DNA from: a virus
Lineage: Duplodnaviria; Caudoviricetes
Virus record (IMG/VR): IMGVR_UViG_3300023199_000094
Span: 1-52,173 of that record
Length of the DNA stretch: 52,173 bases
Reading direction: 5' to 3' (one strand)
How positions within the stretch are numbered: the first letter of the stretch is position 1; each line of letters begins with the position of its first letter. The position numbers were made by a program, and so were the translations under genes. Positions 20,709 to 41,676 of this stretch are shown here, one piece after another. The notes beneath the pieces were generated by a model. It was not told where the DNA came from. It saw only the letters and a program-made list of their open reading frames with translations, and did no database searches.

Positions 20709-21869
20709 CTACTGATAGATGGGCGAATTGGACGGATCACCATTTAAGTCAAACGGTAAAATCAGCCACGGGTCAGGAGCAAACCCTGCCAGTGAATCGT
20801 CTTCTATAACATCGGCGCTAGTGACCAAGAGCACAGCGAACTCCCACCAATCAGAGGGATTTAGCGCCTCTTGGCTCAATCCAGACGGATCGCCGGCAGA
20901 GGGATCCACACCCGACGGGTCGTACTCTTTACCCACCACTTGCGTAACACCGACAGGCAATGTCACTGTGGCGCCATTGGCGAGCGACACACGCTGTATC
21001 GTCACACTCGGATTATCAGTGTCCTGTGTCTCCAACACGTCGACAACGGTATACGGCGAAGCCCCTTGTCGGATAGCCCGCTCATTATGCTGAGGGTCAT
21101 CCGAAAGGTTCTCAACAATATAAGCGTTGCGGCGCGGATACGCCACGGCCTGATCGACGTGAGTATCAAGCACTTGGTGGTTAAACCGCGTACTCTCAAC
21201 ATCTAGCGGCCAAGGCGACCCCACAGCAGGTTGGTCTGCCAACACATTGACGTCTACCAACGCCGAAGCACCGTTAGCAAACGTCAAAGTGTAGGTATTG
21301 ACAGCGCTCGGATCCGACGGGTCACCCGTCTCAACCGTATCGACATACACCACAATATACGGCCGCAGATACGACGCACCAACCGGAGCAGCAGCATCTT
21401 TATCAGCTATAAAGTCATAAGCACCGCCCCACCGTGTCGACGTCGGGATCACATTTCGATCCTCTAACGACCCCGGTACAGTACCCGGCCAATCGCCGGG
21501 GCTATCGACATAAAGAAGGTACATCGAAACGGTATCGCGCGAACGAATAGCAAAAATAGGACGCACAATACGCGAATCGCTCGGGTCAGGATCAGGGTTG
21601 CTCGGGTCGATGACATCTACCGAAAACGGGTGGGCATAAGCACCTACAATAGCACGACCCGTAAGATTCGGAATCTTAATGTCTTCAAACAACGGAATAG
21701 TCGCCGCCGAAGGATCCGGCGGCGATACGCGCACGCGCATCCGAAGAAGGCTGACCTGTAGCTTACCTAAAAAAGGTAAAAACTCTCTAATGTATAAGTC
21801 ATCACTATACTTTAGAGGAAAGTCACGATGGATTGCGCCGTCATGATCTAGAGGTAAAGGAGCTGGCAT
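20709..21869 (-). CDS. Acidic beta-rich protein with nine DPS motifs (putative virion protein)
   Basis: 386 aa, AGGAG RBS, between terminase and portal; 9 DPS and 2 NPS; internal repeat LTFANGA/VSLANGA. Confidence 0.75.
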   Translation of the reverse strand: MPAPLPLDHDGAIHRDFPLKYSDDLYIREFLPFLGKLQVSLLRMRVRVSPPDPSAATIPLFEDIKIPNLTGRAIVGAYAHPFSVDVIDPSNPDPDPSDSRIVRPIFAIRSRDTVSMYLLYVDSPGDWPGTVPGSLEDRNVIPTSTRWGGAYDFIADKDAAAPVGASYLRPYIVVYVDTVETGDPSDPSAVNTYTLTFANGASALVDVNVLADQPAVGSPWPLDVESTRFNHQVLDTHVDQAVAYPRRNAYIVENLSDDPQHNERAIRQGASPYTVVDVLETQDTDNPSVTIQRVSLANGATVTLPVGVTQVVGKEYDPSGVDPSAGDPSGLSQEALNPSDWWEFAVLLVTSADVIEDDSLAGFAPDPWLILPFDLNGDPSNSPIYQ

Positions 21870-21915
21870 ATCTTTTCTCCTGTGTTTTCGCGGACTAGTA
21901 CTTTACTTTATTAAA

Positions 21916-22245
21916 CTATCTGCCTTCGTCAACACCAACGTCAACTATACTTTCGCGTCCGCGAAATTGTAGTGGTGTATAGCCGTCTTTAGCACGAGCG
22001 CGATCTACTAAAGAAATAAGCTCATTTTCCCAATCTTTTACATCTTCGGCTAAAGACTTACGCACAACACCTAAAACACCCCATTTAAAAGCAAAACCAT
22101 AAAACTTAAGGCGTAGCGGAGTACCTTCTTCCGATTTACCGGGAGAATAATACTCATTAGAAAAACCTGCCGTAGTTCCCCAAACGACTCTTGGAAGCAC
22201 GTTTAAATATAACCAAACCAAAACTTTCATCACTTTAGCTTTCAT
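21916..22245 (-). CDS. Hypothetical protein
   Basis: 109 aa overlapping the terminase stop. Confidence 0.6.
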   Translation of the reverse strand: MKAKVMKVLVWLYLNVLPRVVWGTTAGFSNEYYSPGKSEEGTPLRLKFYGFAFKWGVLGVVRKSLAEDVKDWENELISLVDRARAKDGYTPLQFRGRESIVDVGVDEGR

Positions 22246-24079
22246 AAACCACCTGTTTTCTTGACTTTAAGTAATTTTCGACCGCAGGAAACGACTTCAA
22301 GTACTGTTCGTGAGCTTCTTGAACCGCGGGACCGTAATGGCCTTGATACGTATATCTTCTCTCTTCGCGTATTAACACAGAGTATGCGCGTTGAAGAGCG
22401 TCACAACCGTCATCGTACGATCCTTTAGGAAAGTCATTTAACTCGTCCATCAACCATTGTAAACGATTGTCCTGTGCAATAGACTGGTCTATTTTGTTAA
22501 TACGGCTACCTGCCGGAAAGAACAGCCGCCTCTGTTCCACCATAGGGGAGACACTGGCTAGACGCTGCTGTTTATCGACGGAAGTCTCTTCCCTAGGGTA
22601 GTACCTGAGATCAGTAATGCCAAACTGGTTAGCGAATTTTTTCAACCAGTACTGTATCGTGTGCTGGTAGGCCACGGTCTCGATCACAAACCCGAGATGC
22701 AGCCAACCGCCGTCCCCGTCCCTGAACTGCTGTCCCCACTTCAGCGCTTGGTTAATCATCATCATCACTTGTCGTTCAGGGGACGGTCTATCCCGCTCCG
22801 CGTCGAGTACGTAGTAACACCGTGTCGTAGGAGAGAAACCCATAGTCAATACGACAGTGTAGTCCGCGCTGTCTTTCTCACGGGTGTTCGGGTCTATAGA
22901 GGTAACCAACAATAAGTCTTTTGGCGGCGGTCGTAAACCTTGATGAAACATCTGCGTAGCGTGAGTCTGTGTAGCGGTATGGTCAATATACAGTTTAAAC
23001 CAGTCGTGTCGGAAGTACGACGCGTCATCATCACGAGGATTCAGTAAAAACTCACGCGCAAAAGCTAAAGACCCAATATTGTTTCGGCGTTGTAACAGCT
23101 TCTCAGCAGGCCATCTGTCAGGCCACAAAACCTCCGTTGGGTATCCTTTTTCATTAAGGATACAAGCGGGAGTTTTTCGTTTTACCCAACCATCAGTTTT
23201 ATCTTTGTTTTTCCACGTCCTCTCAAGTAAATCATCAAAATGAAGCACCGTACCTACAACTATGAGATCCCCTTTCTCAGAGTCCATCGCATTGAAGACG
23301 GTAGAAAACAACCATTCTTCCATTTCATCGCGAAGGTCTTTATTCTTAACATTTTTGTCATTAATTATGTCGTCTAGTACAACAAGATCAGGACGTTGCA
23401 GCCTGTTCAGTATGGTTATCTCGCCTTCCTCTGTCTCTACTTTTTCGGGTCTGTTGAAATTTAGTCCTCGAATCTGAGAGCCGGGCGAAAACACCTTAAT
23501 CTGCACACCATTAGCGGTAACAACATGCTCCTCGTCCCATTTCCCGCCAACTTCCCCACCCGCTGTGAACTTCTTAGGTTTACCTTGAAGCTCTCCAAAG
23601 TCTTTAATTATACGACTGTTACTAGAGAGCTCCGTCTTAATATTCCGCAAGAACTCCTTAGCCTGCTTCTGGGTATCTGAACAAATAACAATGTTTGATT
23701 TCTTGTTATAGCAGATGCACCACAGGGTGTGGGCAAAAGTGATAATAGTTGTTTTAGCGTGTTCGCGAGGAAACAGCCAAAGTATGCGTTTTCTAGTCTT
23801 CGAAGTCTGTAGTTCTTGACAGAGCTGGTAATGCGCCGGAGCAAACTTATTAGATAAATGAGCTTCGAGATAATGCCTAATGAAGTATATTAAAGAATTC
23901 TCGCCGAGTTCTTTATCGCTAACAGGCACCGCTTCTAACAGTGCTAATTGCCAAGCTTCTTCAGACCAACCCGCAGGTTTATCAAATTCTTCAAGACGTA
24001 AAATGTCCGCAAACTGCTCCGCAGAGTTTATCTCCGTTTCCTTGTCGTACTGTAGTGGGTCGTTCCAATAGTAAGTCAT
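22235..24079 (-). CDS. terL: Terminase large subunit
   Basis: Walker A PREHAKTT, Walker B RPDLVVLDD, VVGT coupling motif, nuclease SIDP...DYT and FPKGSYDDGCDA. Confidence 0.95.
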   Translation of the reverse strand: MTYYWNDPLQYDKETEINSAEQFADILRLEEFDKPAGWSEEAWQLALLEAVPVSDKELGENSLIYFIRHYLEAHLSNKFAPAHYQLCQELQTSKTRKRILWLFPREHAKTTIITFAHTLWCICYNKKSNIVICSDTQKQAKEFLRNIKTELSSNSRIIKDFGELQGKPKKFTAGGEVGGKWDEEHVVTANGVQIKVFSPGSQIRGLNFNRPEKVETEEGEITILNRLQRPDLVVLDDIINDKNVKNKDLRDEMEEWLFSTVFNAMDSEKGDLIVVGTVLHFDDLLERTWKNKDKTDGWVKRKTPACILNEKGYPTEVLWPDRWPAEKLLQRRNNIGSLAFAREFLLNPRDDDASYFRHDWFKLYIDHTATQTHATQMFHQGLRPPPKDLLLVTSIDPNTREKDSADYTVVLTMGFSPTTRCYYVLDAERDRPSPERQVMMMINQALKWGQQFRDGDGGWLHLGFVIETVAYQHTIQYWLKKFANQFGITDLRYYPREETSVDKQQRLASVSPMVEQRRLFFPAGSRINKIDQSIAQDNRLQWLMDELNDFPKGSYDDGCDALQRAYSVLIREERRYTYQGHYGPAVQEAHEQYLKSFPAVENYLKSRKQVVYES

Positions 24080-24083
24080 TAGA

Positions 24084-24746
24084 TCAATACATATCCATAC
24101 GGATACCTAAAAGATGTACATTTATAGACGCTGAAGGATTAGACGGATTAGAAGGATCTATATGCTGGATGTCTAAAACAGACATTAAAATAGCGGCTTG
24201 TTTAGTGTCCACAACATTTTGCAACTCTGTTGTCACATCCAAAAACATAAGAGTATCTTTAAGTAAATAAACATTTTCTATAATGATTTCGTCCGGTGTA
24301 AGAGCTAATTCATGAGTGTCGGCTACTTTATGGCAAAAATGTATATCTACTAGACACTCTTGGTCAGCTTGTAGACCTATAAAAGACGCTCTCATAAAGT
24401 CGTACTGCTGTAAATTCTCAATCGCTAAAAAGCCTTTACCTCCGTTGTTAATAATCGTAGTGGGCATACACCCTATGTTTGACGTCACAGGGTGAGATTG
24501 AAATGATATAAACTCTGCGTCATCGGGGTGAGTGTGGTGTTTTACTATTCGATCTAAATGTAAAATATCCGCTTCCGATAGCTCGTTAAGCATCGTGATT
24601 ATAACCTGCTTATTAGCTACGTCCCAAAACGGCAGTGCTATAATGTTTCGATCGCTTAGACAGGCATCGCGTGTGACTAAAAGGTAGAGAGACAGAGGGT
24701 CTATTCGTTTATCTTCAATTAAATTAAACGTATAGTTGACTGGCAT
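24084..24746 (-). CDS. Hypothetical protein with DPSNPSNPS motif
   Basis: 220 aa TGATG-coupled to the fibre gene. Confidence 0.7.
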   Translation of the reverse strand: MPVNYTFNLIEDKRIDPLSLYLLVTRDACLSDRNIIALPFWDVANKQVIITMLNELSEADILHLDRIVKHHTHPDDAEFISFQSHPVTSNIGCMPTTIINNGGKGFLAIENLQQYDFMRASFIGLQADQECLVDIHFCHKVADTHELALTPDEIIIENVYLLKDTLMFLDVTTELQNVVDTKQAAILMSVLDIQHIDPSNPSNPSASINVHLLGIRMDMY

Positions 24747-26929
24747 CAGACCGCCTCCGTTATGCGCTCGATAATAAACACTATATTAGAAGTAAACTGA
24801 TTACCCGAACCCGAAATACGACCCGCCAACAAGTCCATGGACATAGTACCAGAGGACGACGTTGACACTATGTAAGATATGGTGAAAGGTGTTTGGTCGT
24901 TTTTATCTTCAAACTCAATACCAACATAGTTATTTGGTGTGCCTTCAGGTAAAAGGTTAGGTGATGGTGTTGAGGTGCCTCCTAAATCCAATTGCCAGCC
25001 GTTACTAGACGCCACAGACGATGAGCGGGCCACAAAATGGCACGTAACGAGATAGTCACCCGCTTCAGGAATATCAGTGAATGTGTAAGAATACACTGTA
25101 GCCGGAGATGTCGCAACCGCATTAGACGTAAACTCACCTGGCTCAGCATGGACTCGTTTATAAGGTTCGTTGATAGTGACCTCATTCGTATCTTCCGTGA
25201 TACGCATGTTTTCACTAGTCGTAATACTCCTAAACTGTAAATCCGTACCGGTCTTTTGTTTAAAGACCCCAGCACCTGCACCTACACTCGACGCCGTCTG
25301 GACGGCCGTCCCATTATAAGCAATAGTCAAATCATTAGAATTGGTAGTGATGGATATATCACTACCACCAACTAAAGACCTAAACTCTAAATCTACCCCA
25401 GACTTCTGTTTAAAGACTTCGTTACCAACACCAATATTACTAGCGGTATTCGCTTCACCCGCACCGGCCGCAGAAGAAATCGTAATATCATCTGAGTTTT
25501 GTACCACAGTGATATTCGTACCTGCTAAAATAGTACGAAGTTCAAAATCTACCCCAGACTTCTGCTTAAAGACACCAGCACCAACGCCAACATTGGACAT
25601 GGTGTTGGTTTCGCCGAGCGTGCCGTTAAAAGCGATAATGACGTCGTCAGTATTCTCAGTAACAGAAATATCTGACCCCGCAACAATAGATCTAAACTCT
25701 AAATCGGCACCGACCTTTTGCTTAAACACATCAACACCAGCACCAACGTTGCTGGCAGTATTTGCCTCACCTGCCGCGGACGCATCAATAGTGATGTTGT
25801 TAGAGTTTTGCGTCAGGGTAATGTTCGACCCGCCGACTAGTGTCCTAAACTCTAAATCTACGCCAGTCTTTTGTTTAAAGACGTCAACACCCGCACCAAC
25901 ATTGCTGGCGGTGTTAGTCTCGCCGGAAGCCGAAGCTGAAATAGTAATTTCATCGGCGCCAAGAGCTAAACTAATATTCGTACCGGCAATTAATGTCCTA
26001 AACTGTAAATCCGTACCGGTCTTTTGTTTAAAGATAGGCTCACCTACACCTACACTCGACGCTGAGTTAGCCTCTGCAAGAGTGCTTATAACTAAGGTAT
26101 CTGGGGGTGTTGCAGACTCTGTTATTGTAATTAAACCAGTATTGAGAATGCTCTTAAATTGTAAATCAGAGCCGATTTTCTGTTCGAACAGTCCAAATCC
26201 TATACCTAGATTGCTGGCAGTGTTAATCTCACCTGCCGCGGACGCATCAATAGTAATATTGTCTACATTCTGCGTCAGGGTAATATTCGTACCGGCAATT
26301 AATGTCCTAAACTCTAAATCTACGCCAGTCTTTTGTTTAAAGACGTCAACACCCGCACCAACATTGCTGGCGGTGTTAGTCTCGCCGGAAGCCGAAGCTG
26401 AAATAGTAATATTGTCTACATTCTGCGTCAAAGAAATATTCGTACCGGCAATTAATGTCCTAAACTCTAAATTAGCAGCGGTTTTCTGCCTGAATACGTC
26501 AGCACCAGTACCGACGTTACTGGCAGTATTGATTTCGCCAGAAGCCGCGACCACATCAATAGAAACTGTGTCCGCATTTTGAGTAACAATAGCGTCATTC
26601 AGGCCAACCAGTGTCCTAAACTCTAAATCGGCACCAGTCTTTTGCTTAAAAACCTGACTCCCACCGCCAGTGTTACTGGCGGTGTTCGCCTCACCTGTAG
26701 ACCCTGTCGTCACATCAATTGTAATCGTATCGCCAACCTGAGTGACTATAGCATCATTCAAACCAACGATTGTTCGAAATTGAAAAGACGATCCAGATTT
26801 ATTTTTAAACAGCGGACTCCCACCGCCAATATTCACAGCACCGTCGACTAAAGGCAGACTAGCTGCTAACACTGCCCCTATAGCTGAGTCTATTTGAGGA
26901 CCTGTGTAAGGTCCTTGATATGTTGCCAT
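24746..26929 (-). CDS. Long repeat fibre protein (11 x ~51-aa repeats + C-terminal domain)
   Basis: Repeat consensus GE.NTASNVG.G.DVFKQK.G.DLEFRTL.AG.NI..TQN...ITI; ATG 26929 preferred because MATYQG..TG..IDSAI aligns with the paralog's N-terminus. Confidence 0.8.
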   Translation of the reverse strand: MATYQGPYTGPQIDSAIGAVLAASLPLVDGAVNIGGGSPLFKNKSGSSFQFRTIVGLNDAIVTQVGDTITIDVTTGSTGEANTASNTGGGSQVFKQKTGADLEFRTLVGLNDAIVTQNADTVSIDVVAASGEINTASNVGTGADVFRQKTAANLEFRTLIAGTNISLTQNVDNITISASASGETNTASNVGAGVDVFKQKTGVDLEFRTLIAGTNITLTQNVDNITIDASAAGEINTASNLGIGFGLFEQKIGSDLQFKSILNTGLITITESATPPDTLVISTLAEANSASSVGVGEPIFKQKTGTDLQFRTLIAGTNISLALGADEITISASASGETNTASNVGAGVDVFKQKTGVDLEFRTLVGGSNITLTQNSNNITIDASAAGEANTASNVGAGVDVFKQKVGADLEFRSIVAGSDISVTENTDDVIIAFNGTLGETNTMSNVGVGAGVFKQKSGVDFELRTILAGTNITVVQNSDDITISSAAGAGEANTASNIGVGNEVFKQKSGVDLEFRSLVGGSDISITTNSNDLTIAYNGTAVQTASSVGAGAGVFKQKTGTDLQFRSITTSENMRITEDTNEVTINEPYKRVHAEPGEFTSNAVATSPATVYSYTFTDIPEAGDYLVTCHFVARSSSVASSNGWQLDLGGTSTPSPNLLPEGTPNNYVGIEFEDKNDQTPFTISYIVSTSSSGTMSMDLLAGRISGSGNQFTSNIVFIIERITEAV

Positions 26930-26931
26930 GG

Positions 26932-27327
26932 TTAGCTCACCACAAGGTAGTAACAACCGTCCGTAAGAAGATAAGCCTCATTGCTCACGGTGCAGTATGT
27001 ATTATTTAGGGTACTCACGGGTACGACGTCTTCAATTGGCGGCGATACCCAACCTTTACGAGGCGCGCTGTCAGAGAGAAGCACAAACTCCACCATACCT
27101 GTCGAAATACGATGATATAAAAATACAATATCAGAAGCATCAAACTCTGGAGGTAGTTCTACATTATCTCGAAGAGCGCGCGCCCACGCATTGCGGTCTA
27201 CAACTCTAGTGTATCCATAAAGACGATAACCCGGGAGTGCTGCAATCGTTCTGGCAGGAAGTAATAGCCGATACACCGGCTGACTCTCGAAAAAATCTCC
27301 TGTTGGTCGGTAATCGAAGACAGTCAT
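26932..27327 (-). CDS. 131-aa fibre-associated protein (paralog A)
   Basis: Shares PTG..FE...VYR, FL.HRIS.GM.E.VLL.D.APR.GWVSPP with 28112-28507. Confidence 0.8.
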   Translation of the reverse strand: MTVFDYRPTGDFFESQPVYRLLLPARTIAALPGYRLYGYTRVVDRNAWARALRDNVELPPEFDASDIVFLYHRISTGMVEFVLLSDSAPRKGWVSPPIEDVVPVSTLNNTYCTVSNEAYLLTDGCYYLVVS

Positions 27328-27336
27328 CGTTTCCTC

Positions 27337-28110
27337 TTAATTGACTTTCTCAACAGTAATGATGATATCCTCCATGGTGTTTGTGTCACCGGCGTCAGTG
27401 TTAAATTTTAGGTCTAGCGTCACGTTGCCGGCAGATGACACCGTAAACAAGCCAATCAAAGAAACAGGCTGTATATCTATTGAGCTTGTCAGAACGTTAA
27501 GACCCGATGCTGGGGTCTGGGGCAGCGACGTAGGAGAGGGGTTGCTTGGGCCTGAGAGTGAAAGCAAATAGTTCTGACGCGAGTTGGTTGGCGAAGACGA
27601 CGCCAACCACCAAACAGTCACTAAATAATCACCAGACTCAGGTAAATTAAAAACTTCAGACACTGCAATGTCTGTAGGCGGATTATTCACATTCGTAGTA
27701 GAAGCTACTGCGTTATACCTTACCTCCTTAAAAAAACTGGTGGTGTTCGTGACTTCAATCGTATTAACGGTCGTGTTAAGAACTATTCCAGTGCCTGCGG
27801 TCAGTGTTCGAAAGTTTAACGTATCTCCAGTCTTATCTTTATAGATATTCGCTCCACCACCTACGTTGGCGCCAACTACGTCAGGGTAAGCTGGGGCGCT
27901 TATCGTAATTGTATCAGCGTTTTGCGTGACGGTTATAGGACCAGTAGATGTTAAGGTTCTAAACTCAAATAAATTGGAGTTTTTTTGCTTAAATAAAGCT
28001 TCTCCACCACCAACATTACTTCCGTTATTGACTAAAGGAGAGCCAGCTGTATTTACAGCTGTTACTGCTGAATCAATAACAGCGCCTTCGTGTATGCTTG
28101 CGTAAGCCAT
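27337..28110 (-). CDS. Short repeat fibre protein (2 repeats), paralog of 24746-26929
   Basis: NVGGG...FKQK....FEFRTL repeats; C-domain PESGDYLVT matches PEAGDYLVT. Confidence 0.8.
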   Translation of the reverse strand: MAYASIHEGAVIDSAVTAVNTAGSPLVNNGSNVGGGEALFKQKNSNLFEFRTLTSTGPITVTQNADTITISAPAYPDVVGANVGGGANIYKDKTGDTLNFRTLTAGTGIVLNTTVNTIEVTNTTSFFKEVRYNAVASTTNVNNPPTDIAVSEVFNLPESGDYLVTVWWLASSSPTNSRQNYLLSLSGPSNPSPTSLPQTPASGLNVLTSSIDIQPVSLIGLFTVSSAGNVTLDLKFNTDAGDTNTMEDIIITVEKVN

Positions 28111-28111
28111 T

Positions 28112-28507: not shown

Positions 28508-28510
28508 TGT

Positions 28511-28783: not shown

Positions 28784-28800
28784 TGTTTATTCCCCTCGTC

Positions 28801-28846: not shown

Positions 28847-28862
28847 AGACACGCGCTCTCGC

Positions 28863-29783: not shown

Positions 29784-30010
29784 TCAAAACTCCTCATTGT
29801 CAGTATTAGCACTCCCCATATAACAGAGAGCAGTAAACACAAAAAACTTGTCATCATCAACAAACCATCAAGGTAGTCGTGACGGTGAAAATGAACCACA
29901 ACAGCTCCTGCCGCAGTGCACAAACCACCTAAAAATAAAGCATACCACACCGCTACGACAAGGTGTTTAATGCGCTGTCTCACACGAACAATTCCGTCAT
30001 CTGTGCCCAA
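29780..30010 (-). CDS. Small two-TM membrane protein
   Basis: Two hydrophobic segments; stop overlaps the next ATG (ATGA). Confidence 0.55.
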   Translation of the reverse strand: MGTDDGIVRVRQRIKHLVVAVWYALFLGGLCTAAGAVVVHFHRHDYLDGLLMMTSFLCLLLSVIWGVLILTMRSFE

Positions 30011-30882
30011 GCGTCAAAACAAATCTTCTCAAAATGTACTCCAGACTCACGAAACATTTCAAGAGCAATCTCGCAATGCTTCACCCACGTGTCATCCGTG
30101 CGGCCAAGAAAGTTGTGTACTTCAGGTATATACACGGCTTTAATACCTACTTGGATCAAACCTCTAGCACAATCCGAACAGGGTGGGCCTGTGACGTAGG
30201 CTTCACAACCTTCAAGACTCTGTGAGGCGTTGTAAATAGCGTTGCGTTCGGCGTGCTCCGTAAAAAAGTACTTCTCAGGTCGCTTTTTCCTTTCTGCTCT
30301 CTCCTGTACTTTTCGAGGAAACCCATTATAACCCATCGCCACTTGACGATGTGTTTTCGGATCTACAATAACACAGCCACACTTCGTACTGTCATCTGTG
30401 CTGCGACTCGCCGCCACATGAGCTAACAACATAAAATATTGACGCCAAGGCATACGGGGTCGGCGTGTCGGTAGTTGATTCTGCGCGTTTTTAAGACTGG
30501 CCCATGGTTGAAAGTCTTCTATAACGTCCAAAGAAGGGAAGACACCTCGAAAAAGCAACGCTCTGTCACTAATGGTCAAAAAAGCCGAAGGTTTAGATGT
30601 TGGCCATCTAAGATCATCCACAATTCGCTTTGCTTCGTCGGTATCACTAAAATGCACAGAAAGATGATAAATCAACCACCGTCTCATGTCATCTATAGCC
30701 GCCATTTGCCAACTACGTCTGTCGTCATAGATAGCTACGATATAACCGACTTGCTGAAGTCGGGCTATAAAATCAAAAGCACCAGCAACCGGTTTACCGG
30801 CAACAACTCTTACATCACTGACTTCAGTCTGGTCGGCCGTGTTGTGGATAACACCATCAAAACTCAGACAGATAAGTCTCAT
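29980..30882 (-). CDS. HAD-like domain fused to dCMP deaminase
   Basis: C-terminal GYNGFP, HAERNAI and PCSDC zinc-deaminase motifs; N-terminal ICLSFDGVIH...KP.A...I.DRA HAD-like domain. Confidence 0.85.
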   Translation of the reverse strand: MRLICLSFDGVIHNTADQTEVSDVRVVAGKPVAGAFDFIARLQQVGYIVAIYDDRRSWQMAAIDDMRRWLIYHLSVHFSDTDEAKRIVDDLRWPTSKPSAFLTISDRALLFRGVFPSLDVIEDFQPWASLKNAQNQLPTRRPRMPWRQYFMLLAHVAASRSTDDSTKCGCVIVDPKTHRQVAMGYNGFPRKVQERAERKKRPEKYFFTEHAERNAIYNASQSLEGCEAYVTGPPCSDCARGLIQVGIKAVYIPEVHNFLGRTDDTWVKHCEIALEMFRESGVHFEKICFDAWAQMTELFV

Positions 30883-32125: not shown

Positions 32126-32806
32126 TCAAGAAAACAGCTCTTCTTTACTCCACCAGACAGGTACAAACTCTCGATACACACTGCGGTATGAAAGAGTGAA
32201 CAAATACCGACCGTCCCGCTCACAAGACGCCATCACAGTACGTAAAAATTTCAGTACTTTGTTATCATGGTGCAAGTTATTAAAGACTTGACGACCATCA
32301 AAATGTGAAGGGCCTTGGACGCTATAACCATCAATACCAAGTAAGAAAATGTACTTAAAGCCCATCATCCAAGCGATATTCAGGGCTACCATACCGACTG
32401 TACCGCAGTGATAAATCTTTTCGTAATTCGGTGAGCCAACAGTATCTGCTAGACGATAATAAATGACTTTATATCTCGTGTCTTTATACGCACTTGACCA
32501 CGTCTTCTTTGGTATGTGATTACCCACCAAGAAAAGAGACTTTTTAGAAGACTTCTTTATCGAGGGTGCGTACCTCTGCGCAGCAACAGCATCCGTAATC
32601 ACATAATAAGTAGGGGTAAACACCTTTCCAATGTTGTTGACTCCGATTGTCACGTTCTGGGTGAAAAAAGGATCCGTCAGGTCATAGTCTAGCAGCGAAC
32701 TACCGTTGCCCATCACAATGCAAACTTCGTCTTTGTGCTTACACTTCAAATATTCAGGTATAGCACTGAAACTTCTCTTATTTGACTTTCTCTCAGTCTT
32801 TCTCAT
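32126..32806 (-). CDS. Maf/DUF115/GT42(CstII)-fold putative nonulosonate transferase
   Basis: CIVMGNGSSL, TIGVN, PTYYVITD, GTVG..AL.IA..MGFK.IFLLGIDGY....SHF. Confidence 0.75.
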   Translation of the reverse strand: MRKTERKSNKRSFSAIPEYLKCKHKDEVCIVMGNGSSLLDYDLTDPFFTQNVTIGVNNIGKVFTPTYYVITDAVAAQRYAPSIKKSSKKSLFLVGNHIPKKTWSSAYKDTRYKVIYYRLADTVGSPNYEKIYHCGTVGMVALNIAWMMGFKYIFLLGIDGYSVQGPSHFDGRQVFNNLHHDNKVLKFLRTVMASCERDGRYLFTLSYRSVYREFVPVWWSKEELFS

Positions 32807-33044
32807 GTTTCATGCTTGCGTGTATCTCTTCCACAGTATCCATCATTACCTCAAACTTAGCGTTGGCGTCTTGGAACACTCTTTTTTCGAGTTTATATAA
32901 GTAGTCTCTAGTGTGCTCGTGCTGCTGGTGTATATGCACCCGCAAAGCTTCAAGCTTAGCGTGTCTTCTCGCTCTTATATCTAATATCCACCAAAGCAGA
33001 AACAACGCAAGCGACACACCTCCAACTATATAAACGCTATCCAT
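32793..33044 (-). CDS. Small membrane-anchored protein
   Basis: 83 aa, N-terminal TM segment followed by coiled coil; GAGG RBS. Confidence 0.65.
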   Translation of the reverse strand: MDSVYIVGGVSLALFLLWWILDIRARRHAKLEALRVHIHQQHEHTRDYLYKLEKRVFQDANAKFEVMMDTVEEIHASMKHEKD

Positions 33045-33070: not shown

Positions 33071-33105
33071 AGTGTCATCTTTGAGTGTCATCTTTGAGTG
33101 TCATC
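33071..33105. repeat. 13-bp tandem repeat (2.7 copies)
   Basis: agtgtcatctttg x2 + agtgtcatc, spanning the stop of 33088-33330. Confidence 0.85.
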
Positions 33106-33330
33106 CTCACAGTCAAAATCAGTCACAGCGCTAAGGTCAATACACTTCAGACCTGTCTCCGAATTGAAGACACCATCTCTAAGGATCTGCTCAGCCACCA
33201 TATACTGCCTTTTAGTCAAGTCAAAGATCTCCTCTCCCGCCTCGTAGTCTCCGCTCTTCAAAATAAGCTGTTTACGCATCTTATCTAGGATCAGAAGGTC
33301 TAGTGATTCCACCGAAATCCAAATAATCAT
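33088..33330 (-). CDS. Hypothetical protein
   Basis: 80 aa, ATGA-coupled to the upstream gene. Confidence 0.6.
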   Translation of the reverse strand: MIIWISVESLDLLILDKMRKQLILKSGDYEAGEEIFDLTKRQYMVAEQILRDGVFNSETGLKCIDLSAVTDFDCEDDTQR

Positions 33331-34519: not shown

Positions 34520-34532
34520 GTTGTGTCTTTAG

Positions 34533-35513
34533 TTACGCATCTGTGGGCTTATCTGTAGCGAAAAAAGACTCCAGTAAAGCAGAAATCACACTCTCATGGC
34601 CCGGCTCCATAGCGACACGTCCGTATTGACGATCTCCATAAAGCGTGACGCGCTTCGAGTCTGCTCCAGCAGGGCCAATATCATGTACAAAACTGCTGCT
34701 GTTACCTGCAATCCAATCGGCTTCACGCAATACACGAAGGTAAATCTCTCTCGGTATGGTATTCGGATAGTAAATGACGAGACGCTTAAAGCTACCAGCA
34801 AAAGCCCTCCAAGCTTTCAGGATACGATCACTACCCGGCTCACCATTAGGGTTCATCACAATAAGATCTAAACCCATCTCTTCAGCCTGAGTATAAATGT
34901 CCTGAACGTACTCCTCATAAGGCTCATCTTTAGCCGTGTTCGGATGTAACCTCACTAAGGCATAAGGCCGCAACCAACCCTCAAAACCCTCCAAGCTTTC
35001 ATCAGGCTTATTAAACTCAGGAGGATACGACACCTGACGGCACGTAGTCGTCCAATTACAAGCAGCTGTAAGAAGACTTACCGCCACCTTTGCTGATTCA
35101 GTAGAGAAAGCATAAAGATGATGGGCCAGAAGACTCAAAGCATGTCTATACCGATCATCTAAACCTCCACTGCAATCACCAGCGTAAAGATGGTGTATCT
35201 GAGCACCTGTAAAGCGCCAACTGATCTCTAAAGCTGCCCGAAGATCAACATATCTATCTCCGAGTATCACAACATGGTCAGGAGGACACCTTTCTGCGAT
35301 AAAGTCAATATACTTCGGAAACTCCAAGACTGTAGACTCCCACCCCTTATCCTCCACAAGCTCAATAAGATTGGATGCTCGTGCACTATCACCTAGACAA
35401 TAAAAGTCCACAAACAAGTTAGGGTGCCCCTGTAACGCCGTAACTATAGGCTCCAGTAACCCCCAATCAGCCTGATCATAAGTCGTAAACGTGAAAGCTA
35501 CCGTCTTACTCAT
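34533..35513 (-). CDS. NeuC-like UDP-GlcNAc 2-epimerase (divergent)
   Basis: AD.GLL.PI, VILGDRY, DDRYRHALS.LAHH, YALVRLHP, AGNSSS and GDRQYGR follow the NeuC pattern; ATG 35513 (MSKTVAF) has a GGAG RBS and ATGA coupling. Confidence 0.8.
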   Translation of the reverse strand: MSKTVAFTFTTYDQADWGLLEPIVTALQGHPNLFVDFYCLGDSARASNLIELVEDKGWESTVLEFPKYIDFIAERCPPDHVVILGDRYVDLRAALEISWRFTGAQIHHLYAGDCSGGLDDRYRHALSLLAHHLYAFSTESAKVAVSLLTAACNWTTTCRQVSYPPEFNKPDESLEGFEGWLRPYALVRLHPNTAKDEPYEEYVQDIYTQAEEMGLDLIVMNPNGEPGSDRILKAWRAFAGSFKRLVIYYPNTIPREIYLRVLREADWIAGNSSSFVHDIGPAGADSKRVTLYGDRQYGRVAMEPGHESVISALLESFFATDKPTDA

Positions 35514-35632
35514 GGTATACAAGCTCCACACGATCCAATGATAATTAACGTCGCCACAGCTCCTATACCAGCTAACACACAAGCTCTAAAAAACCCATAC
35601 CAGTCGAATACATCGTCATCAGGGTCAAACAT
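35510..35632 (-). CDS. 40-aa single-TM peptide (not in ORF track)
   Basis: MFDPDDDVFDWYGFFRACVLAGIGAVATLIIIGSCGACIP; GAGGAG RBS; stop overlaps the NeuC-like start. Confidence 0.65.
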   Translation of the reverse strand: MFDPDDDVFDWYGFFRACVLAGIGAVATLIIIGSCGACIP

Positions 35633-35634
35633 GA

Positions 35635-36390
35635 CTACTCCTCTGTATCAGTGACTTCTTCGTATTTATAGTGTCTCGGTCTTGACCTAAAGTTCTGCAT
35701 AGTAACCCCATCCTGCACATCATGACAAACGTTAGAGCCCATCTGAATGAAAGCTCTTTCACCGATAGAAAATGCAGGAGCAACCTTACTGCCAGCGCCT
35801 ATAAAGACGTCTTTACCAACCGTCACAGACCCACACAGAATAGTACCGGGACCAATAAAAGCATTCTCGCCGACTGTACAATCATGTTCCACTATAGCAT
35901 GCGTGTTTACCAAAGCGCCACAGTGTATATTAGCACGGGCACCAATATGTACGCCGGGATGTATCACAGATCCATTATTAATCAGGACGTGTGCTGAAGG
36001 ATCAACATATGCCGCTGGATGTATAAAAGTGTGGTAAGGGATACCGTGAAATTCAGCCATCTTACGAGCTAAACGCCACAAAGCATTGCGTCCAATAGCT
36101 CTCGTCATAGTTACACAAGTCTCTTTTGATAATTTCTCAAGTACTTTTTCACTATTCAAAGCTGTCCATAAGTCCCCTACATACCTCACTCTCTCCGAAT
36201 ACTGCTGCATTAAAGCCTGTAAAGCAGGGTGTAATTTAGGTTCAGGAGCTCCCTTATGCCGTAATGCACCTATCCAAATATGATCCTCTGCACCATAAGA
36301 TAGAAGAGAGTCAATCTTACCTATATCAATCATCCACTGTGCAATAAGACTCGCTTCGCTGCCGCACCCCGCAAGTAAATAGATATTCAT
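35635..36390 (-). CDS. NeuD/PglD-family sugar acetyltransferase (hexapeptide repeat)
   Basis: N-terminal Rossmann-like LLAGCG, AIG.N..., then IHPAAYV and NTHAIVEHDCTVG with left-handed beta-helix repeats. Confidence 0.88.
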   Translation of the reverse strand: MNIYLLAGCGSEASLIAQWMIDIGKIDSLLSYGAEDHIWIGALRHKGAPEPKLHPALQALMQQYSERVRYVGDLWTALNSEKVLEKLSKETCVTMTRAIGRNALWRLARKMAEFHGIPYHTFIHPAAYVDPSAHVLINNGSVIHPGVHIGARANIHCGALVNTHAIVEHDCTVGENAFIGPGTILCGSVTVGKDVFIGAGSKVAPAFSIGERAFIQMGSNVCHDVQDGVTMQNFRSRPRHYKYEEVTDTEE

Positions 36391-36770: not shown

Positions 36771-36868
36771 TCCTCCGTAGTATTTGTCTCTGGTATAGAG
36801 TCCGAGACAATCTCAACGCACGGAGTGCAGACTAATTTCTTTAAAGAGTGCAAATAAACATTTCCATA

Positions 36869-37372
36869 TCACTTTTTTAATTCTTTTGAACTGTCTTTAC
36901 GAGCCTGTTGAGACGGTGACTTGTCCTCTTTCATACTTGCAACAAGTTTTGTTTTCTCTGTATCAGATGTTTCTTTCGCTCTCAGGGAGGCGGTTAAGAT
37001 ATCTACTTGTCTTTCTTTAATGTGGTGTAAATCACTCTGGATATCTTTAACTATAAGCTCTTGTCTTTCGTCTGCCGCTGCAATCGCCGCCAAAAGCTCA
37101 TTCTGCGCTTTCGCAGTAAGAGTACCGTCTTTTAAAATCAAAATCAACTCAGTGTTTTGTTTCACAAGATCATAAATATTCTTTTCGAGGCTCTCTATTC
37201 GGGTGGCGAGCTCTGCTACACTGCTGCTTACAACCTTGTACATAAGGTAAAGACCAAACCCGCCTATACCTAACTGAGCGATAGCGTCAAGAGCCGTGCT
37301 CCCTGTGTTGACGGCTAAAATAGAGCACGAAGACAATGCCCCAATGACTGACATTTCTGCTATTTGCCACAT
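36869..37372 (-). CDS. Membrane protein, holin-like (TM + coiled coil)
   Basis: IAQLGIGGFGLYLMY TM segment followed by heptad repeats. Confidence 0.5.
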   Translation of the reverse strand: MWQIAEMSVIGALSSCSILAVNTGSTALDAIAQLGIGGFGLYLMYKVVSSSVAELATRIESLEKNIYDLVKQNTELILILKDGTLTAKAQNELLAAIAAADERQELIVKDIQSDLHHIKERQVDILTASLRAKETSDTEKTKLVASMKEDKSPSQQARKDSSKELKK

Positions 37373-37394
37373 GTTTATAACCTAGTTGTTTGTC

Positions 37395-39650
37395 TTAAGG
37401 ACCGAGCCAAGGGGCCATATCAGCTGAAATACCTTTGACAGCTACAATGGCATCTCTATTTAATTTTTGATTAGCTACATTGTACGGACCGTGCCAGGCA
37501 GCAGAAAAATGCGCTATGTCCCAATCTACATTTACATTACCGATAGAAGTCGGAGCGGACCCACTTGTAAAACTATTAGTGTTACTTGTATTAACTTTTA
37601 CGCCGTTTAGCCAAAACTCTTGAGGACTGCCGTTGGAAGTTAAAGCAACATACTGCCACTCTCCAGTACCTATGATACTTTTACCAAGATCATAGTCTAA
37701 ACCGCTAGTTGAACCCCAGCAACTTAGGACAGTATTACCTGCGCCCGAAACGTAAAACCCAAGTCTATAATAAGGCTGTCCGCCAGAATTTGGTCTTATT
37801 AACTCTTCAATAGTGGCGTCGGGGGAGTCTTTATCGTTGAGTCTAAAAACAAACTCATAAATTACCCTGTTGCCCGACACAGGACAGTTAATATTTTGCG
37901 TCCATTTCGGAGGCGATGCCGTCGGATGTGTTACCTCATAAGGCTGCACACGATCCATACTGTACCAATTACCTTTTTTAACTGGTTTAGACGGTCCGGG
38001 AAACTCTGTAAATAGAAAACTAAAATCTAAAGAGTCTCCGTTAGGCGCACCAAGTAAAGGATCACGTCCCCAATAATCTATCACAAACTGTTCTGTCAAG
38101 TCTTCATCAAAACCATAAAGCCAACCTGCACGGCAAGTATTACTTTCAAAATCCCCAAATTCAGGGGTGGAGTACCCTTCAACGGCAAGAGACTCGTGAT
38201 ACGTTGGTTCTGCAAAAACATCAAAAGGGTCTGACAAAGCTGTCGTGATATCCGGGTCGTCCGCTACCGCCAACAGACGTACATCTATCAAATCATTTTC
38301 GATATCTGAAACAGATAATTCGTCAAAGGTCACAACACCCGCGACAGCTTGTTTCGTAATAACACCAGATACCTCGCCTTCGGCCGGTGAAGCACCTGTA
38401 TTAGTCCTTATACCAACAGTCACTTTAGTAATGTAGTCGTTGAGCTCAATGCTCGTATCGGCTTTACGTAAAGTAATCTGCGGAGACGGTGAAATAAGAT
38501 CATCTTCGATAGCGTCCGTCGGTTGGACTTCCCATTGTAAATAATCACTTTCAATCTCAACCGACTGAGGATTCGTCTCGGAGACTACGCGGATAATCCA
38601 CACACACTTAGCATACACCGGCACAGTCTCTGACGCCCCCGAAGCGTCGAGATACTGCGGAGACGAGGGATCAGACGGGTCGTAGTCAGGATTCACGACC
38701 TGCGGGCCTGTGAAGCCATCCACAGGAAACGGCCCACTGTCATAGTTGCCGCTGGGTACAGTGGACGTACGCCCACCACCCATAAGAGCAATATCAGTGT
38801 CGGCACCCGCTGTCACGTCAAATAGACCTTCTAAATGCTCCGTACCGTCATAAGGCGGGTTCGGGTAATGGTTGTGGTCCCTAATCTGGTCTTCAAAAAT
38901 CTGCCCTAATTCGCCCGTAGAGGCGTTATCATCTGAACCTCTCAGGAAGACGCCACCATCTGCTCGATCCAACACACCAGTGGCATTATTCAAGTCAGGA
39001 AGCTGTACGCCAAACAAAGGTGAAAACGGGTTGTCTACAAACTGACCGTCACAGCGAAGATAACCATTGGGTAGTTCAATCGAGCGGCCAGCTTCGGCTA
39101 AAAGATTAGGGAACCAAGCGATAACCGCTCCAATAGGCGTAACGTTTCGATCATCAAAAAGATCACCTATTTCGCCTTTAGGACCTTCATAGCGGTATCC
39201 AGACCACTTAAAAGGCGTAGCGTAACCAGAAACATTACCATTAATTGTCAAGATGCCGGTTTTATAGTCAAAAAACCAATCTAGAGCATCCGTTGGGAAA
39301 ATCTGGTTATCGTTGTTATCAAATAACATGCCTTCAAAATCGGCACCAAACTTATCACTAATCCAATCAACTAAACGGGCCGCGCCAGCGGACCCTGTTT
39401 CAGATAAATACCACGATTGTGAATCCGAAACCGAACTATCTTCAATAAAAGTTATTTTGTCATAAAATACGGCATTACCTAAAACTTCAGTAACACCGGG
39501 GTCATTCTGAACAATGGTACCTGTCCACATTTCACTGAAACTGATATTTACAGTCTCCGCGCCAACCTCTTCATAAATAGCCTTATCTTCACTCGTAACC
39601 CTCTTGTTTAAGAGAATCTTCTGAGACCTGTCAATAGGATCAGTACTCAT
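37395..39650 (-). CDS. Tail fibre-like protein with collar domain and C-terminal LamG/ConA-like domain
   Basis: PIGAVIAW...LPNGYLRCDGQ...LPDL...FLRG...HNH...ETVP..A...WIIRV collar motif; C-terminal GEWQYVALT......FWLNG. Confidence 0.8.
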   Translation of the reverse strand: MSTDPIDRSQKILLNKRVTSEDKAIYEEVGAETVNISFSEMWTGTIVQNDPGVTEVLGNAVFYDKITFIEDSSVSDSQSWYLSETGSAGAARLVDWISDKFGADFEGMLFDNNDNQIFPTDALDWFFDYKTGILTINGNVSGYATPFKWSGYRYEGPKGEIGDLFDDRNVTPIGAVIAWFPNLLAEAGRSIELPNGYLRCDGQFVDNPFSPLFGVQLPDLNNATGVLDRADGGVFLRGSDDNASTGELGQIFEDQIRDHNHYPNPPYDGTEHLEGLFDVTAGADTDIALMGGGRTSTVPSGNYDSGPFPVDGFTGPQVVNPDYDPSDPSSPQYLDASGASETVPVYAKCVWIIRVVSETNPQSVEIESDYLQWEVQPTDAIEDDLISPSPQITLRKADTSIELNDYITKVTVGIRTNTGASPAEGEVSGVITKQAVAGVVTFDELSVSDIENDLIDVRLLAVADDPDITTALSDPFDVFAEPTYHESLAVEGYSTPEFGDFESNTCRAGWLYGFDEDLTEQFVIDYWGRDPLLGAPNGDSLDFSFLFTEFPGPSKPVKKGNWYSMDRVQPYEVTHPTASPPKWTQNINCPVSGNRVIYEFVFRLNDKDSPDATIEELIRPNSGGQPYYRLGFYVSGAGNTVLSCWGSTSGLDYDLGKSIIGTGEWQYVALTSNGSPQEFWLNGVKVNTSNTNSFTSGSAPTSIGNVNVDWDIAHFSAAWHGPYNVANQKLNRDAIVAVKGISADMAPWLGP

Positions 39651-39657
39651 AAACTCC

Positions 39658-41217
39658 TCACGAACTAGTGATATTAGTGATACTATCGTTATTATTACGG
39701 AAAATGATAATCACTCGATATTCATTACCGTTGTCACCGGTGCTAGCGGTTCCAAAAGAAAAGTTTACAGTTCCCGCTGACCCACTAGTGCGGGCACCTT
39801 GGCTATTAGCTCGAGAACTTCCCGAACCATCCCCATTGTCATCGCCAAACACACGACCAAGGTCAAAATACAAATCGTCATCATCTAGTTGCAACAAAAC
39901 ATTTAAATCACCAGTACCATAAGGGTCTATATCAATAAATGAAATACCAGAAAACGTCAGAGCGCCATTACTAGCGGATGCTTTAGTGAATTTGCGCTGA
40001 TACTCCTGATCTCCTGTCTTTGCAGGGTAGTCAGTATCACCGTACACAAGCGTACCATTTCTAACCTGAGCATCGCCATTATCCAACGAAGTGGTCGAGT
40101 CAAACGAAGTATCAGTATCGTTTTCTAGTCGTTTATCCTCATCTAGGAAAGCGTCCGTGGTGTTTGTAGACACAACACCATAAGTATTGATACGTCGAGA
40201 AAGAGCCGACGCCGAATCTGAGACTTGCTGTCCATCCGGTTTGTTAAGATCAACGGACAATACGGCATCGTTAGCTCCCGAAGAGCCATCCGCCCCTAAA
40301 GTAACTAATTCATTAGAAATAGCAAAAGTGTCATTTACACTAGGGACAGAACCAGGATTAACCGCTTTATTAACGGTGCCTGCGTTATCTGTAATTCTCG
40401 AAACCGCCGATGGGTGGTACGTCTTACGGAATATACCGGACGCCGCGGTATAGGATACGTCAAACGTTGAGCCAACTCCATAGTGGTTAATACCGGATAA
40501 CCACTTATCTACCGGAGTGTTTTCAGCCGACGTAGGCGACACATCGAACGCCGGCGCAGAAGCAACATCATCATGATAAACAGTTGTGACGTTAGTGTCA
40601 CCTGCTTCATCGTGTTTAATTACGATCTGCTTACGACCTTCTGTCAAGGTAAGATTGGCTTGGGCATTTGCTTTTTGCCAAATGTCGTTATAAACATCTA
40701 ACGCTGTAACTTCTAAATCAACTCCAACACCCACCCCATTATCGGCGATAGAGTAAACTTCTTGGTCAACGCCGTCGCACTCTAATGTAAGCACACCAGC
40801 CGAAGACTGGTTATTAGCCTGTCCAGCACGAAAACGATCGGCTGTATTAGGCGTCGAGGCGACTATAGTAGAGTCGTTGGTTACATTTTGTACAGTAGTA
40901 CCGGCCGTGGTAACCCAATCACCAGAAAGACCGTTGGGTAAAACACCTGTGTAAAAAGAAGCACCGCTTAAAACCAAACTCTGACCAGTCAACAAGCCAG
41001 CTTGAGGATCTGCTAAAGCCAACAAAAGCTTATTGACAGAATCAAACGTATTGGCAACGGTATCCGTACTGGCCATAGGTAAAACACCATCAGTATAATC
41101 ACCGTCTGACGGAATGCCTATAGTACCAGTAGTGCCGTCCCCGCCACCACCGCCTATACCCGACCCTTCAAAAACACTACCTCCTACAGGAAAACTATAG
41201 TTAATATCTTTAGCCAT
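39658..41217 (-). CDS. Putative virion structural protein
   Basis: 519 aa rich in G/S/T/D/N, beta-propensity, upstream of the collar fibre gene. Confidence 0.65.
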   Translation of the reverse strand: MAKDINYSFPVGGSVFEGSGIGGGGGDGTTGTIGIPSDGDYTDGVLPMASTDTVANTFDSVNKLLLALADPQAGLLTGQSLVLSGASFYTGVLPNGLSGDWVTTAGTTVQNVTNDSTIVASTPNTADRFRAGQANNQSSAGVLTLECDGVDQEVYSIADNGVGVGVDLEVTALDVYNDIWQKANAQANLTLTEGRKQIVIKHDEAGDTNVTTVYHDDVASAPAFDVSPTSAENTPVDKWLSGINHYGVGSTFDVSYTAASGIFRKTYHPSAVSRITDNAGTVNKAVNPGSVPSVNDTFAISNELVTLGADGSSGANDAVLSVDLNKPDGQQVSDSASALSRRINTYGVVSTNTTDAFLDEDKRLENDTDTSFDSTTSLDNGDAQVRNGTLVYGDTDYPAKTGDQEYQRKFTKASASNGALTFSGISFIDIDPYGTGDLNVLLQLDDDDLYFDLGRVFGDDNGDGSGSSRANSQGARTSGSAGTVNFSFGTASTGDNGNEYRVIIIFRNNNDSITNITSS

Positions 41218-41226
41218 AACAGACTC

Positions 41227-41676
41227 CTATCGAATGTTTTTACCCATTAGACAAAGCGCTAAAGATACATCCAGTCCTGAATCTTGATAGATATAAACGG
41301 TTTCTGGGTCAATGTTAAACGTCGAAATGCCTGGAGTAGCGCATGTGCCGGCACCCGTACCGTCAACGGTAGCGGCAGGGATAGGTACACCAAAATCTCT
41401 GGTGACTTGATCATCCCCCCACCACACACACGTTGCGCTAAAGTTAAGCACCATCCAGCCAATTAACTCTAAAGTTTTAATAGGTAATTCAGAGGCGGAA
41501 GGATCGCCAGAAGGGTCTCCGTCAATAGCGTCAAACACTCGTATAGGCGTATCGTTAGGTATAGTCAGCTCAAACCATCTATTATCACCCCAGTCACCGG
41601 GGATTACGGCCCCAACGGGAACGTTATCCGCTCTTGGAAAAGAGTCGGGAATTTGCCGCATGTTTTCGCCGCTCAT
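41227..41676 (-). CDS. Putative small virion protein with GDPSGDPS motif
   Basis: 149 aa, beta-rich, co-transcribed with two structural genes. Confidence 0.6.
   Translation of the reverse strand: MSGENMRQIPDSFPRADNVPVGAVIPGDWGDNRWFELTIPNDTPIRVFDAIDGDPSGDPSASELPIKTLELIGWMVLNFSATCVWWGDDQVTRDFGVPIPAATVDGTGAGTCATPGISTFNIDPETVYIYQDSGLDVSLALCLMGKNIR

Follow-up and report, generated by a model that had tools for sequence, protein, structure and literature searches.

Why does one tripeptide, Asp-Pro-Ser (DPS), recur in otherwise unrelated proteins of a single bacteriophage? The question is raised by a linear virus record of IMG/VR (IMGVR_UViG_3300023199_000094; Duplodnaviria, Caudoviricetes) of 52173 bases, estimated to be ~52% complete and analyzed here over its whole length (the window). 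The main carrier of the motif is P0001, a protein of 386 amino acids (aa) encoded on the minus strand at 20709-21869 and flanked by the genes of the large terminase and the portal. An earlier note on this DNA had proposed that DPS is a portable modification tag placed in virion proteins and recognized by a phage enzyme. We find that the motif is real and conserved. A tag for the modification of Ser, probably by glycosylation, is the reading that we tentatively put first, and the structural and other explanations that compete with it are weighed below.

Enrichment and clustering of the motif

P0001 contains nine DPS (residues 52, 88, 95, 183, 186, 317, 322, 327 and 378) and two Asn-Pro-Ser (NPS; residues 286 and 337), as the earlier note had counted, and all coordinates and peptides of that note were correct on re-check. 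The 11 Pro-Ser dipeptides of the protein are without exception preceded by Asp or Asn, and none of 20000 shuffles reached its 11 [DN]PS, i.e. Asp or Asn followed by Pro-Ser. Tripeptide statistics were computed on a set of 55 proteins (16694 aa), or on 54 proteins (16308 aa) when P0001 was left out. DPS was the top tripeptide of the full set by z-score (17 seen versus 3.44 expected), and 8 copies versus 3.18 expected were seen without P0001; the total of [DN]PS outside P0001 was 12 versus a shuffle mean of 5.19, and 37 of 5000 shuffles reached this number. The enrichment thus goes far beyond composition, both in P0001 and in the rest of the set.

The tandem copies described earlier in three unrelated proteins were found again: DPSNPSNPS (24132-24158) near the C-terminus of P0002 (24084-24746, minus strand), a 220-aa orphan encoded just upstream of the large terminase gene; DPSDPS (38664-38681) in the fibre-like protein P0004 (37395-39650, minus strand, 751 aa); and DPSGDPS (41497-41517) in P0003 (41227-41676, minus strand), a 149-aa orphan. 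Taken one by one, their [DN]PS counts were reached in 1 (P0002), 131 (P0003) and 2607 (P0004) of 20000 shuffles. With P0001 left out, three proteins carry at least two [DN]PS within six residues; of 5000 shuffles, 45 produced one such protein and none produced more. Twenty-six tripeptides recur within 3-6 residues in the set, and DPS alone does so in three proteins.

Single DPS lie in the portal (19732-19740), the head-tail adaptor (11413-11421) and, as DPSA, a NeuD-like enzyme (35995-36003), and a 257-aa protein called 'short fibre' (27337-28110) contains GPSNPS (27535-27543). Single copies had been counted as part of the pattern; they are present at the given sites but stand at chance level (807 to 3828 of 20000 shuffles for these four proteins and the primase) and add nothing to it. 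Codons vary among the copies, and both serine codon families, TCN and AGY, are used. That the motif is not a DNA repeat holds for the motif sites of P0001, P0003 and P0004, where Tandem Repeats Finder (minimum score 30) reported no array, but not for P0002, where it found a 9-bp unit in 2.8 copies (87% match, 24133-24157).

The label 'virion proteins' also stood in part. Families support it for the portal and the adaptor, and P0004 is weakly indicated as a virion part by its match to the tail collar fibre family phrog_523 (E 1.1e-5); it also carries a C-terminal Laminin_G_3 domain. P0001, P0002, P0003 and the 'short fibre', on the other hand, match no family, and P0002 and P0003 had no homologue among 5.8 billion clustered proteins within the length range searched. 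A search of P0004 against the PDB sequences returned nothing significant, and a model of its residues 150-385 computed without an alignment gave no usable fold (mean predicted local distance difference test, pLDDT, 31.6).

Position of the motifs in P0001

The searches of P0001 against Pfam (E<=0.01), PHROG and NCBIfam gave no match. An AlphaFold model based on a 22-row alignment is mostly beta, with a mean pLDDT of 73.9. Assignment of secondary structure by DSSP placed 10 of the 11 motifs entirely in coil, and the eleventh, NPS 337 (20853-20861), caps a short helix, which agrees with the loop location proposed earlier. All motif positions given here are on the minus strand. Two hairpin loops, residues 181-189 and 283-289, hold a motif: GDPSDPS (residues 183-188, 21306-21323) lies between strands 172-180 and 190-197, and NPS 286 (21006-21014) sits in a 7-residue hairpin loop preceding strand 290-296. 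The stretch DPSNPDPDPS (residues 88-97, 21579-21608) also forms a loop, DPSGVDPSAGDPS (residues 317-329, 20883-20921) a long loop of low confidence, and DPS 378 (20730-20738) is located in the C-terminal tail; the remaining copy is DPS 52 (21708-21716). P0001 contains two similar hairpin units (residues 193-209 and 293-309; consensus x-Y-x-L-x-x-x-S-G), and sites 186 and 286 each directly precede one of them. Judged by their position in the model, the loops are probably exposed at the surface. No signal peptide was seen in P0001 by eye, which means that a modification, if there is one, would have to take place in the cytoplasm.

The P0001 model had no match at E<=0.001 when compared by Foldseek with the PDB and BFVD, and the Atlas gave no usable match for its fold. 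A VIA-align comparison with 48161 chains gave no trustworthy fold either: the best Z was 4.8, and the neighbours found, fibre heads of adenovirus, reovirus and phages (Z 3.1-4.8), did not rise above the noise level stated by the tool.

Distribution and conservation in the P0001 family

A word-indexed search returned six relatives of P0001 at 36-47% identity, and a profile search of 1.84 billion representatives returned 21 proteins at E<=0.001, the query included; one of these is a 59-aa fragment and one, P0026, is an unrelated repeat adhesin matched through a hairpin only. Because so few proteins matched, this unnamed phage protein family is rare. P0026 is an RTX-type adhesin of 1959 aa with repeats of ~100 aa, and the family profile matches its ITLSNGASVTIPVG segment in nine stretches. 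It was rejected as a relative, as the match covers the hairpin 'LSNGASVTIPVG' and not the DPS region. The family profiles, including two from sub-alignments, found no locus in viral contigs, and the family profile found none in genome contigs. In metagenome contigs only one locus was found (L002, 2441 bases); it encodes the C-terminal 81 residues of a P0001 homologue, followed by two small open reading frames (ORFs) and a portal-like ORF, the same order as in the window.

Among the 22 aligned rows, seven members have 5-11 [DN]PS and the other fifteen 0-3. In a maximum-likelihood tree of 21 rows, from which the 211-aa fragment P0025 was left out, the seven motif-rich members form one split (support 100/99), and the other 14 have 0-3 [DN]PS. 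Some sites are widely shared. Site 286 is the most widely kept of the family ([DN]P[ST] in 15 of 22 members), site 186 is also old (13 of 22), and sites 322 and 337 are widespread too, the third position at 337 being S, T, A or N across the family. At sites 52, 88, 95, 317, 327 and 378, [DN]PS occurs almost only in the rich clade, and at 183 mainly there (6 of 22 members, i.e. five of the rich clade and P0020). Distant members have gaps at 52, 317, 327 and 378. Site 52 is all-gap in 9 of the 22 members, and close homologues carry an insertion DPDDPSDPSA in this region; the copy at 378 is unique to P0001. New copies adjoin old ones: 183 stands by 186, and in the DPSGVDPSAGDPS triple the middle copy, 322, is old, while the flanking 317 and 327 were added in the rich clade and are gaps in the other members. 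An old turn motif has thus multiplied locally in a single lineage. The earlier description of the motifs as loop insertions therefore applies to several copies, but not to the two to four sites that are old turn positions.

Across the seven rich members, identity to P0001 was 67% at the motif residues, 41.5% at other coil residues and 39.6% in strands and helices, and when coil residues were drawn at random, just 2 of 10000 sets reached the identity of the motif. The tree branches spanned by this conservation range from 0.15 to 0.72 changes per site. Ser accounts for most of the difference: its conservation score was 0.68 in the motif versus 0.27 for other coil Ser, whereas the gap was smaller for Asp (0.70 versus 0.54 elsewhere in coil) and Pro (0.70 versus 0.58). 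The residue that follows [DN]P is S in 67 cases and T in five in the rich clade, compared with 19 S, 18 T, 15 D and 8 N in the other members. Of the 78 Pro-Ser dipeptides in the rich clade, 71 have D, N or E in front of them, and 51 of 67 copies of the motif continue with A, G or D after the Ser. These numbers uphold purifying selection on the motif, Ser-specific in one clade. Since the codons have diverged, into both serine families, while the residues stayed, selection acts on the amino acids of the motif.

A candidate transferase and sugar genes

The only candidate transferase in the window is an MptE-like or sialyltransferase-like protein of 226 aa (32126-32806, minus strand). Its residues 64-159 match the Pfam MptE-like family PF01973 (E 9.8e-7, 29.1 bits; cut-off 34.6), and the protein matches phrog_4603, 'alpha-2,3-sialyltransferase', at E 8.7e-5; the comparison with CstII was not significant (E 0.18). 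In the Atlas it groups with several viral clusters of MptE-like proteins of 200-230 aa (feature score 0.94-0.95), and its Atlas model has template modelling (TM) scores of 0.75-0.79 to MptE-like (0.79) and WaaZ_KDO_III (0.77) clusters. These lines of evidence are mutually consistent; none passes a curated threshold.

Two further genes on the minus strand are related to sugar metabolism. One encodes a NeuC-like hydrolysing 2-epimerase (34533-35582; PF02350, E 5.7e-11) that scores 101.2 bits against TIGR03568 (cut-off 235.9) and whose best solved relative is the GDP/UDP-diNAc-bacillosamine 2-epimerase 5xvs of the legionaminic-acid pathway (E 2.6e-10). The other encodes a NeuD/PglB/VioB-like sugar acetyltransferase (35635-36390; Hexapep, E 8.3e-17) with 118 bits against TIGR03570 (cut-off 160.8). 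The MptE/GT42-like, NeuC-like and NeuD-like genes to which the earlier note had pointed are thus present by family matches, several of them below cut-off. A perfect tandem repeat of 13 bp in 2.7 copies (33071-33105) lies in the same region, between the ORFs 32793-33044 and 33088-33330.

DPS arrays in other viruses

IMG/VR was scanned with a degenerate DNA pattern for DPS-G-x-DPS-x-x-DPS. The 12 loci found comprise seven DPS, four DPC and one DPR, and none is a relative of P0001. One of them (L005, 1164-2264; also L007 and L013) encodes a 366-aa phage protein with ~17 Gly-Ile-Asp-Pro-Ser (GIDPS) units in a 15-bp DNA repeat (94% match). Two genes upstream of it stands a 360-aa ORF that resembles a capsid gene by eye and, like the 366-aa protein itself, has no family match. 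Its DPS-centred unit resembles the DPSGV and DPSAG of P0001, but the two proteins are unrelated, and the copies of P0001 are dispersed, old and diverse in codons. The near-perfect 15-bp repeats mark the GIDPS arrays as recent products of slippage. Loops built around DPS therefore arise easily and are tolerated in phage proteins.

A modification tag or a structural turn

The exact tripeptide in four unrelated proteins and the switch to Ser only suggest that something reads the motif in trans. The P0001 family had at first two to four [DN]-P-[ST] turns, of which two directly precede the hairpins of its two internal repeat units. In one clade the motif then became strictly Asp-Pro-Ser, with 5-11 [DN]PS (5-11 DPS) per protein, gained mostly next to old copies and in loop insertions, and these copies have persisted over long divergence. 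DPS would be a short surface-loop tag derived from an older Asx-Pro-Ser/Thr turn. The likeliest reader would be a cytoplasmic enzyme that modifies the Ser hydroxyl. O-glycosylation would be the leading chemistry because sugar genes and a transferase-like gene are present, and the 226-aa MptE/sialyltransferase-like protein by the NeuC- and NeuD-like genes is the only candidate enzyme seen. P0001 would act as a dedicated carrier of ~ten sites made together with the head-assembly genes, and the fibre-like P0004 and the two small proteins P0002 and P0003 would be further substrates. We favour a Ser-modification tag, probably for glycosylation, only tentatively and at less than even confidence. Its narrower forms, namely that the MptE-like enzyme specifically glycosylates Ser, and that DPS is the sequon of a small cytoplasmic MptE/sialyltransferase-like enzyme of the phage that adds a sialic-acid-like or Kdo-like sugar (Kdo, 3-deoxy-D-manno-oct-2-ulosonic acid) to Ser, are each somewhat unlikely.

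Known systems resemble such a tag in part. The Maf flagellin O-glycosyltransferases (PF01973) modify Ser or Thr of a cytoplasmic substrate before its assembly into an external structure, and the phage likewise encodes an MptE-like domain protein by sugar genes of the nonulosonic-acid type. Maf enzymes, however, accept both Ser and Thr, are not known to have a defined sequon and are large multi-domain proteins with acceptor-binding parts beyond the catalytic domain. The 226-aa ORF lacks this build: it has the size of a catalytic domain, falls below the Pfam cut-off and has structural look-alikes among the WaaZ Kdo transferase types, and no flagellin was found in the window. The Ser-Asp repeats of staphylococcal adhesins are glycosylated by the cytoplasmic glycosyltransferases SdgA and SdgB, so a minimal Asp/Ser context can act as a sequon, but these are arrays of SD dipeptides served by another enzyme family in a bacterial system. 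The general O-glycosylation sequon of Bacteroidota, D-(S/T)-(A/I/L/V/M/T), in which Asp adjoins the modified residue and transfer is periplasmic, was considered and rejected: Pro stands between Asp and Ser in every copy, and P0001 has no signal peptide by eye. To our knowledge, glycosylation of a phage's own particle has been shown only for mycobacteriophages. As far as the available text of PMC12619734 describes them, mycobacteriophage virions are glycosylated by phage-encoded glycosyltransferases (Freeman et al. 2023, cited therein), with glycans at the C-termini of capsid and tail-tube subunits, and they are a precedent for a phage that sugar-coats its own particle with its own enzymes.

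The enrichment, the loop location, the conservation of Ser and the enzyme-like gene all speak for the portable tag of the earlier note; the points that weigh against it are the following. Neither DPS nor NPS occurs in the abundant surface proteins, namely the major capsid protein (15435-16391) and major tail protein (9155-10027), or in the tape measure protein and, unlike in mycobacteriophages, the motif lies in internal loops of other proteins; for P0001, P0002 and P0003 a virion role has no family support. The candidate transferase is small, with a PF01973 match of catalytic-domain size under the cut-off, and its named look-alikes (WaaZ Kdo transferase and, not significantly, CstII) transfer sugars to glycans and not to proteins. 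The named relatives of the small enzyme add ulosonic acids to glycans, and the Maf enzymes that act on flagellin are much larger. The families of NeuB (PF03102) and of CMP-synthetase/CTP_transf_3 (PF02348) were not found in the window, which belongs to a record that is itself about half complete; the host could supply the missing steps of the donor pathway, and the sugar genes could equally serve the modification of the host surface or of DNA. None of five virus records with DPS arrays, three of them the GIDPS records and all of them fragments (7-71% complete), has an MptE-like match. The rich clade is one lineage, so the shift to Ser counts in effect as one event per site and not as 67, and two to four of the P0001 sites, being old [DN]P[ST] turn positions, look structural. 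The array in P0002 is a 9-bp DNA repeat, so slippage can produce such arrays. Finally, a selection effect stands against the tag, as the scan behind the observation picks out coincidences.

A purely structural role in cis is only slightly less likely than the tag. Here DPS would be a type I beta-turn (Asx-Pro turn) that closes hairpins, stiffens acidic loops and possibly binds Ca2+ or Mg2+, nothing would read it, and the extra copies would come from local duplication in tolerant loops. Asx, Pro, Ser and a small residue are the components of such a turn, D-P-S followed by a small residue is its textbook form, and it is close to certain that this sequence forms a turn. In the P0001 model (mean pLDDT 73.9) all copies are coil or helix cap, two of them at hairpin starts, and A, G or D follows the Ser in 51 of 67 copies. 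The oldest sites of P0001 are likely structural: 186 and 286 have equivalent positions ahead of the two hairpin units, 13 and 15 of the 22 members, respectively, have [DN]P[ST] there, and NPS 337 caps its helix and tolerates Ala. Members outside the rich clade swap S, T, D and N at the third position, as turn propensities, which permit any of the four there, predict. The new copies beside old ones (183 by 186; 317 and 327 around 322), the 9-bp repeat in P0002, the 366-aa protein of other phages, whose ~17 GIDPS units show how readily DPS loops are made and tolerated, and the lack of copies in capsid and tail tube agree with this role as well. It does not explain, however, why the rich clade, at the third position, gave up Thr, Asp and Asn and became nearly Ser-only (S:T 67:5 versus 19:18), why the motif Ser is kept better than other loop Ser (0.68 versus 0.27), or why the exact tripeptide was multiplied and recurs in tandem in three unrelated proteins; none of P0001, P0002 and P0003 has a Pfam match at E<=0.01, and therefore none to a calcium-binding family, although a cation site of a new kind is possible. 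The switch to Ser, its extra conservation and the tandem recurrence point to a reading factor.

Such a factor need not be a glycosyltransferase, and docking to an assembly partner or chaperone, phosphorylation of Ser, or cleavage at Asp-Pro would draw on the same recurrence across the genome and the same specificity for Ser, Asp and Pro. The P0001 gene lies among assembly genes, between terminase and portal in the window and near a portal-like ORF in L002. Family searches of the window identified no kinase, protease or partner, however, and nothing specific favours any one of these chemistries. A reader of this kind is quite unlikely. Least probable, and in our judgement very unlikely, is an accident, in which the copies outside P0001 arose by slippage in two orphan ORFs and one fibre and those of P0001 are inherited filler without function. 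The DNA repeat in P0002, the lack of homologues of P0002 and P0003 by which conservation could be judged, the count of P0004, which alone is not significant, and the single copies at chance level would all fit. It is difficult to reconcile with the 5000 shuffles, none of which gave two or more clustered proteins, with motif residues conserved above other coil over branches of 0.15-0.72 changes per site, and with codons that diverged while the residues remained unchanged.

Genome context

Nearly all genes up to ~47.6 kb are on the minus strand. Family searches named the tape measure protein (1-7947; at least 2649 aa, running off the window), the major tail protein, the head-tail adaptor (10996-11565), the major capsid protein, the portal (18535-20355) and the large terminase (22235-24079) and, farther upstream, exonuclease, dCMP deaminase, helicase and replication genes. 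By its tape measure, tail, head, portal and terminase genes, the uncultured virus is a phage whose long tail is non-contractile. Neither deposited phages nor IMG/VR contain a close relative: the region 18535-24079 had no megablast match to deposited phages, tblastn against them gave no match for P0001, P0004, the MptE-like or the NeuC-like protein, the large terminase reached 26% identity or less, and the IMG/VR viral contigs contained no relative of the portal protein.

Several other features were noted in the window. From the size of the tape measure (at least 2649 aa) an exceptionally long tail is to be expected, and the tape measure gene contains 21-bp DNA repeats at 2860-2949 and 7341-7397. 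An island of ~2 kb (12174-14162) with ~72-76% GC stands out from the 42-50% GC of the phage and is flanked by head and connector genes. It encodes an N6 DNA methyltransferase (12239-13738), whose specificity domain is TaqI-like, and a protein of 140 aa with a tRNA_bind domain (13741-14163). In the latter, high-GC ORF, GDPGDP (13930-13949) is encoded by a perfect 9-bp repeat of 2.2 copies, an unrelated case of slippage that yields an Asp-Pro tandem. In one sequencing run (X1), which may be that of the source sample, the island is a separate contig of 1989 bases whose ends match the island ends, and a 107-base junction contig has roughly double depth; in another (X2) a single contig of 888 bases spans the left junction (11771-12658), and runs X3 and X4 contain island pieces without phage flanks. 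Either foreign DNA was inserted here very recently or the assembly joined separate pieces, and a bridging contig was found for the left junction only.

A tandem repeat of 153 bp (51 aa; ~4 copies, 63-80% match) occupies 25841-26547 in a 736-aa ORF (24746-26956), for which the only match, to the NMB0315-like domain I, was sub-threshold. The dCMP/cytidine deaminase domain encoded at 29980-30882 covers residues 144-252 of a 300-aa protein whose N-terminal 140 residues have no match. An 11-bp unit repeated six times (85% match, 47813-47875) lies in the gap that separates the leftward from the rightward gene block and may be an origin or an array of regulator-binding sites.

Implications

In the titles and abstracts searched we found no defined phage sequon, no nonulosonic-acid glycosylation of phage proteins and no paper linking a 'DPS motif' with glycosylation; the accessible part of PMC12014285 mentions glycosylation for animal viruses only. 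Self-glycosylation of phages is known from mycobacteriophages; if DPS is a tag, it would extend this kind by a small Ser sequon inside other phage proteins, for which the searches returned no precedent. If nothing but a turn, the motif is unusual yet ordinary; it still defines a rare phage protein family whose gene lies between those of terminase and portal, and provides a clean case of a turn motif multiplying in one lineage. If a Ser-modification tag, it would be a three-residue, Ser-specific site that is directly testable, glycosylated phage proteins would become predictable from sequence and phage surfaces engineerable, and the small MptE-like proteins of several viral clusters would gain a role. 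The phage would then be one case of phage lineages each evolving their own short Ser sequon to sugar-coat selected parts of the virion.

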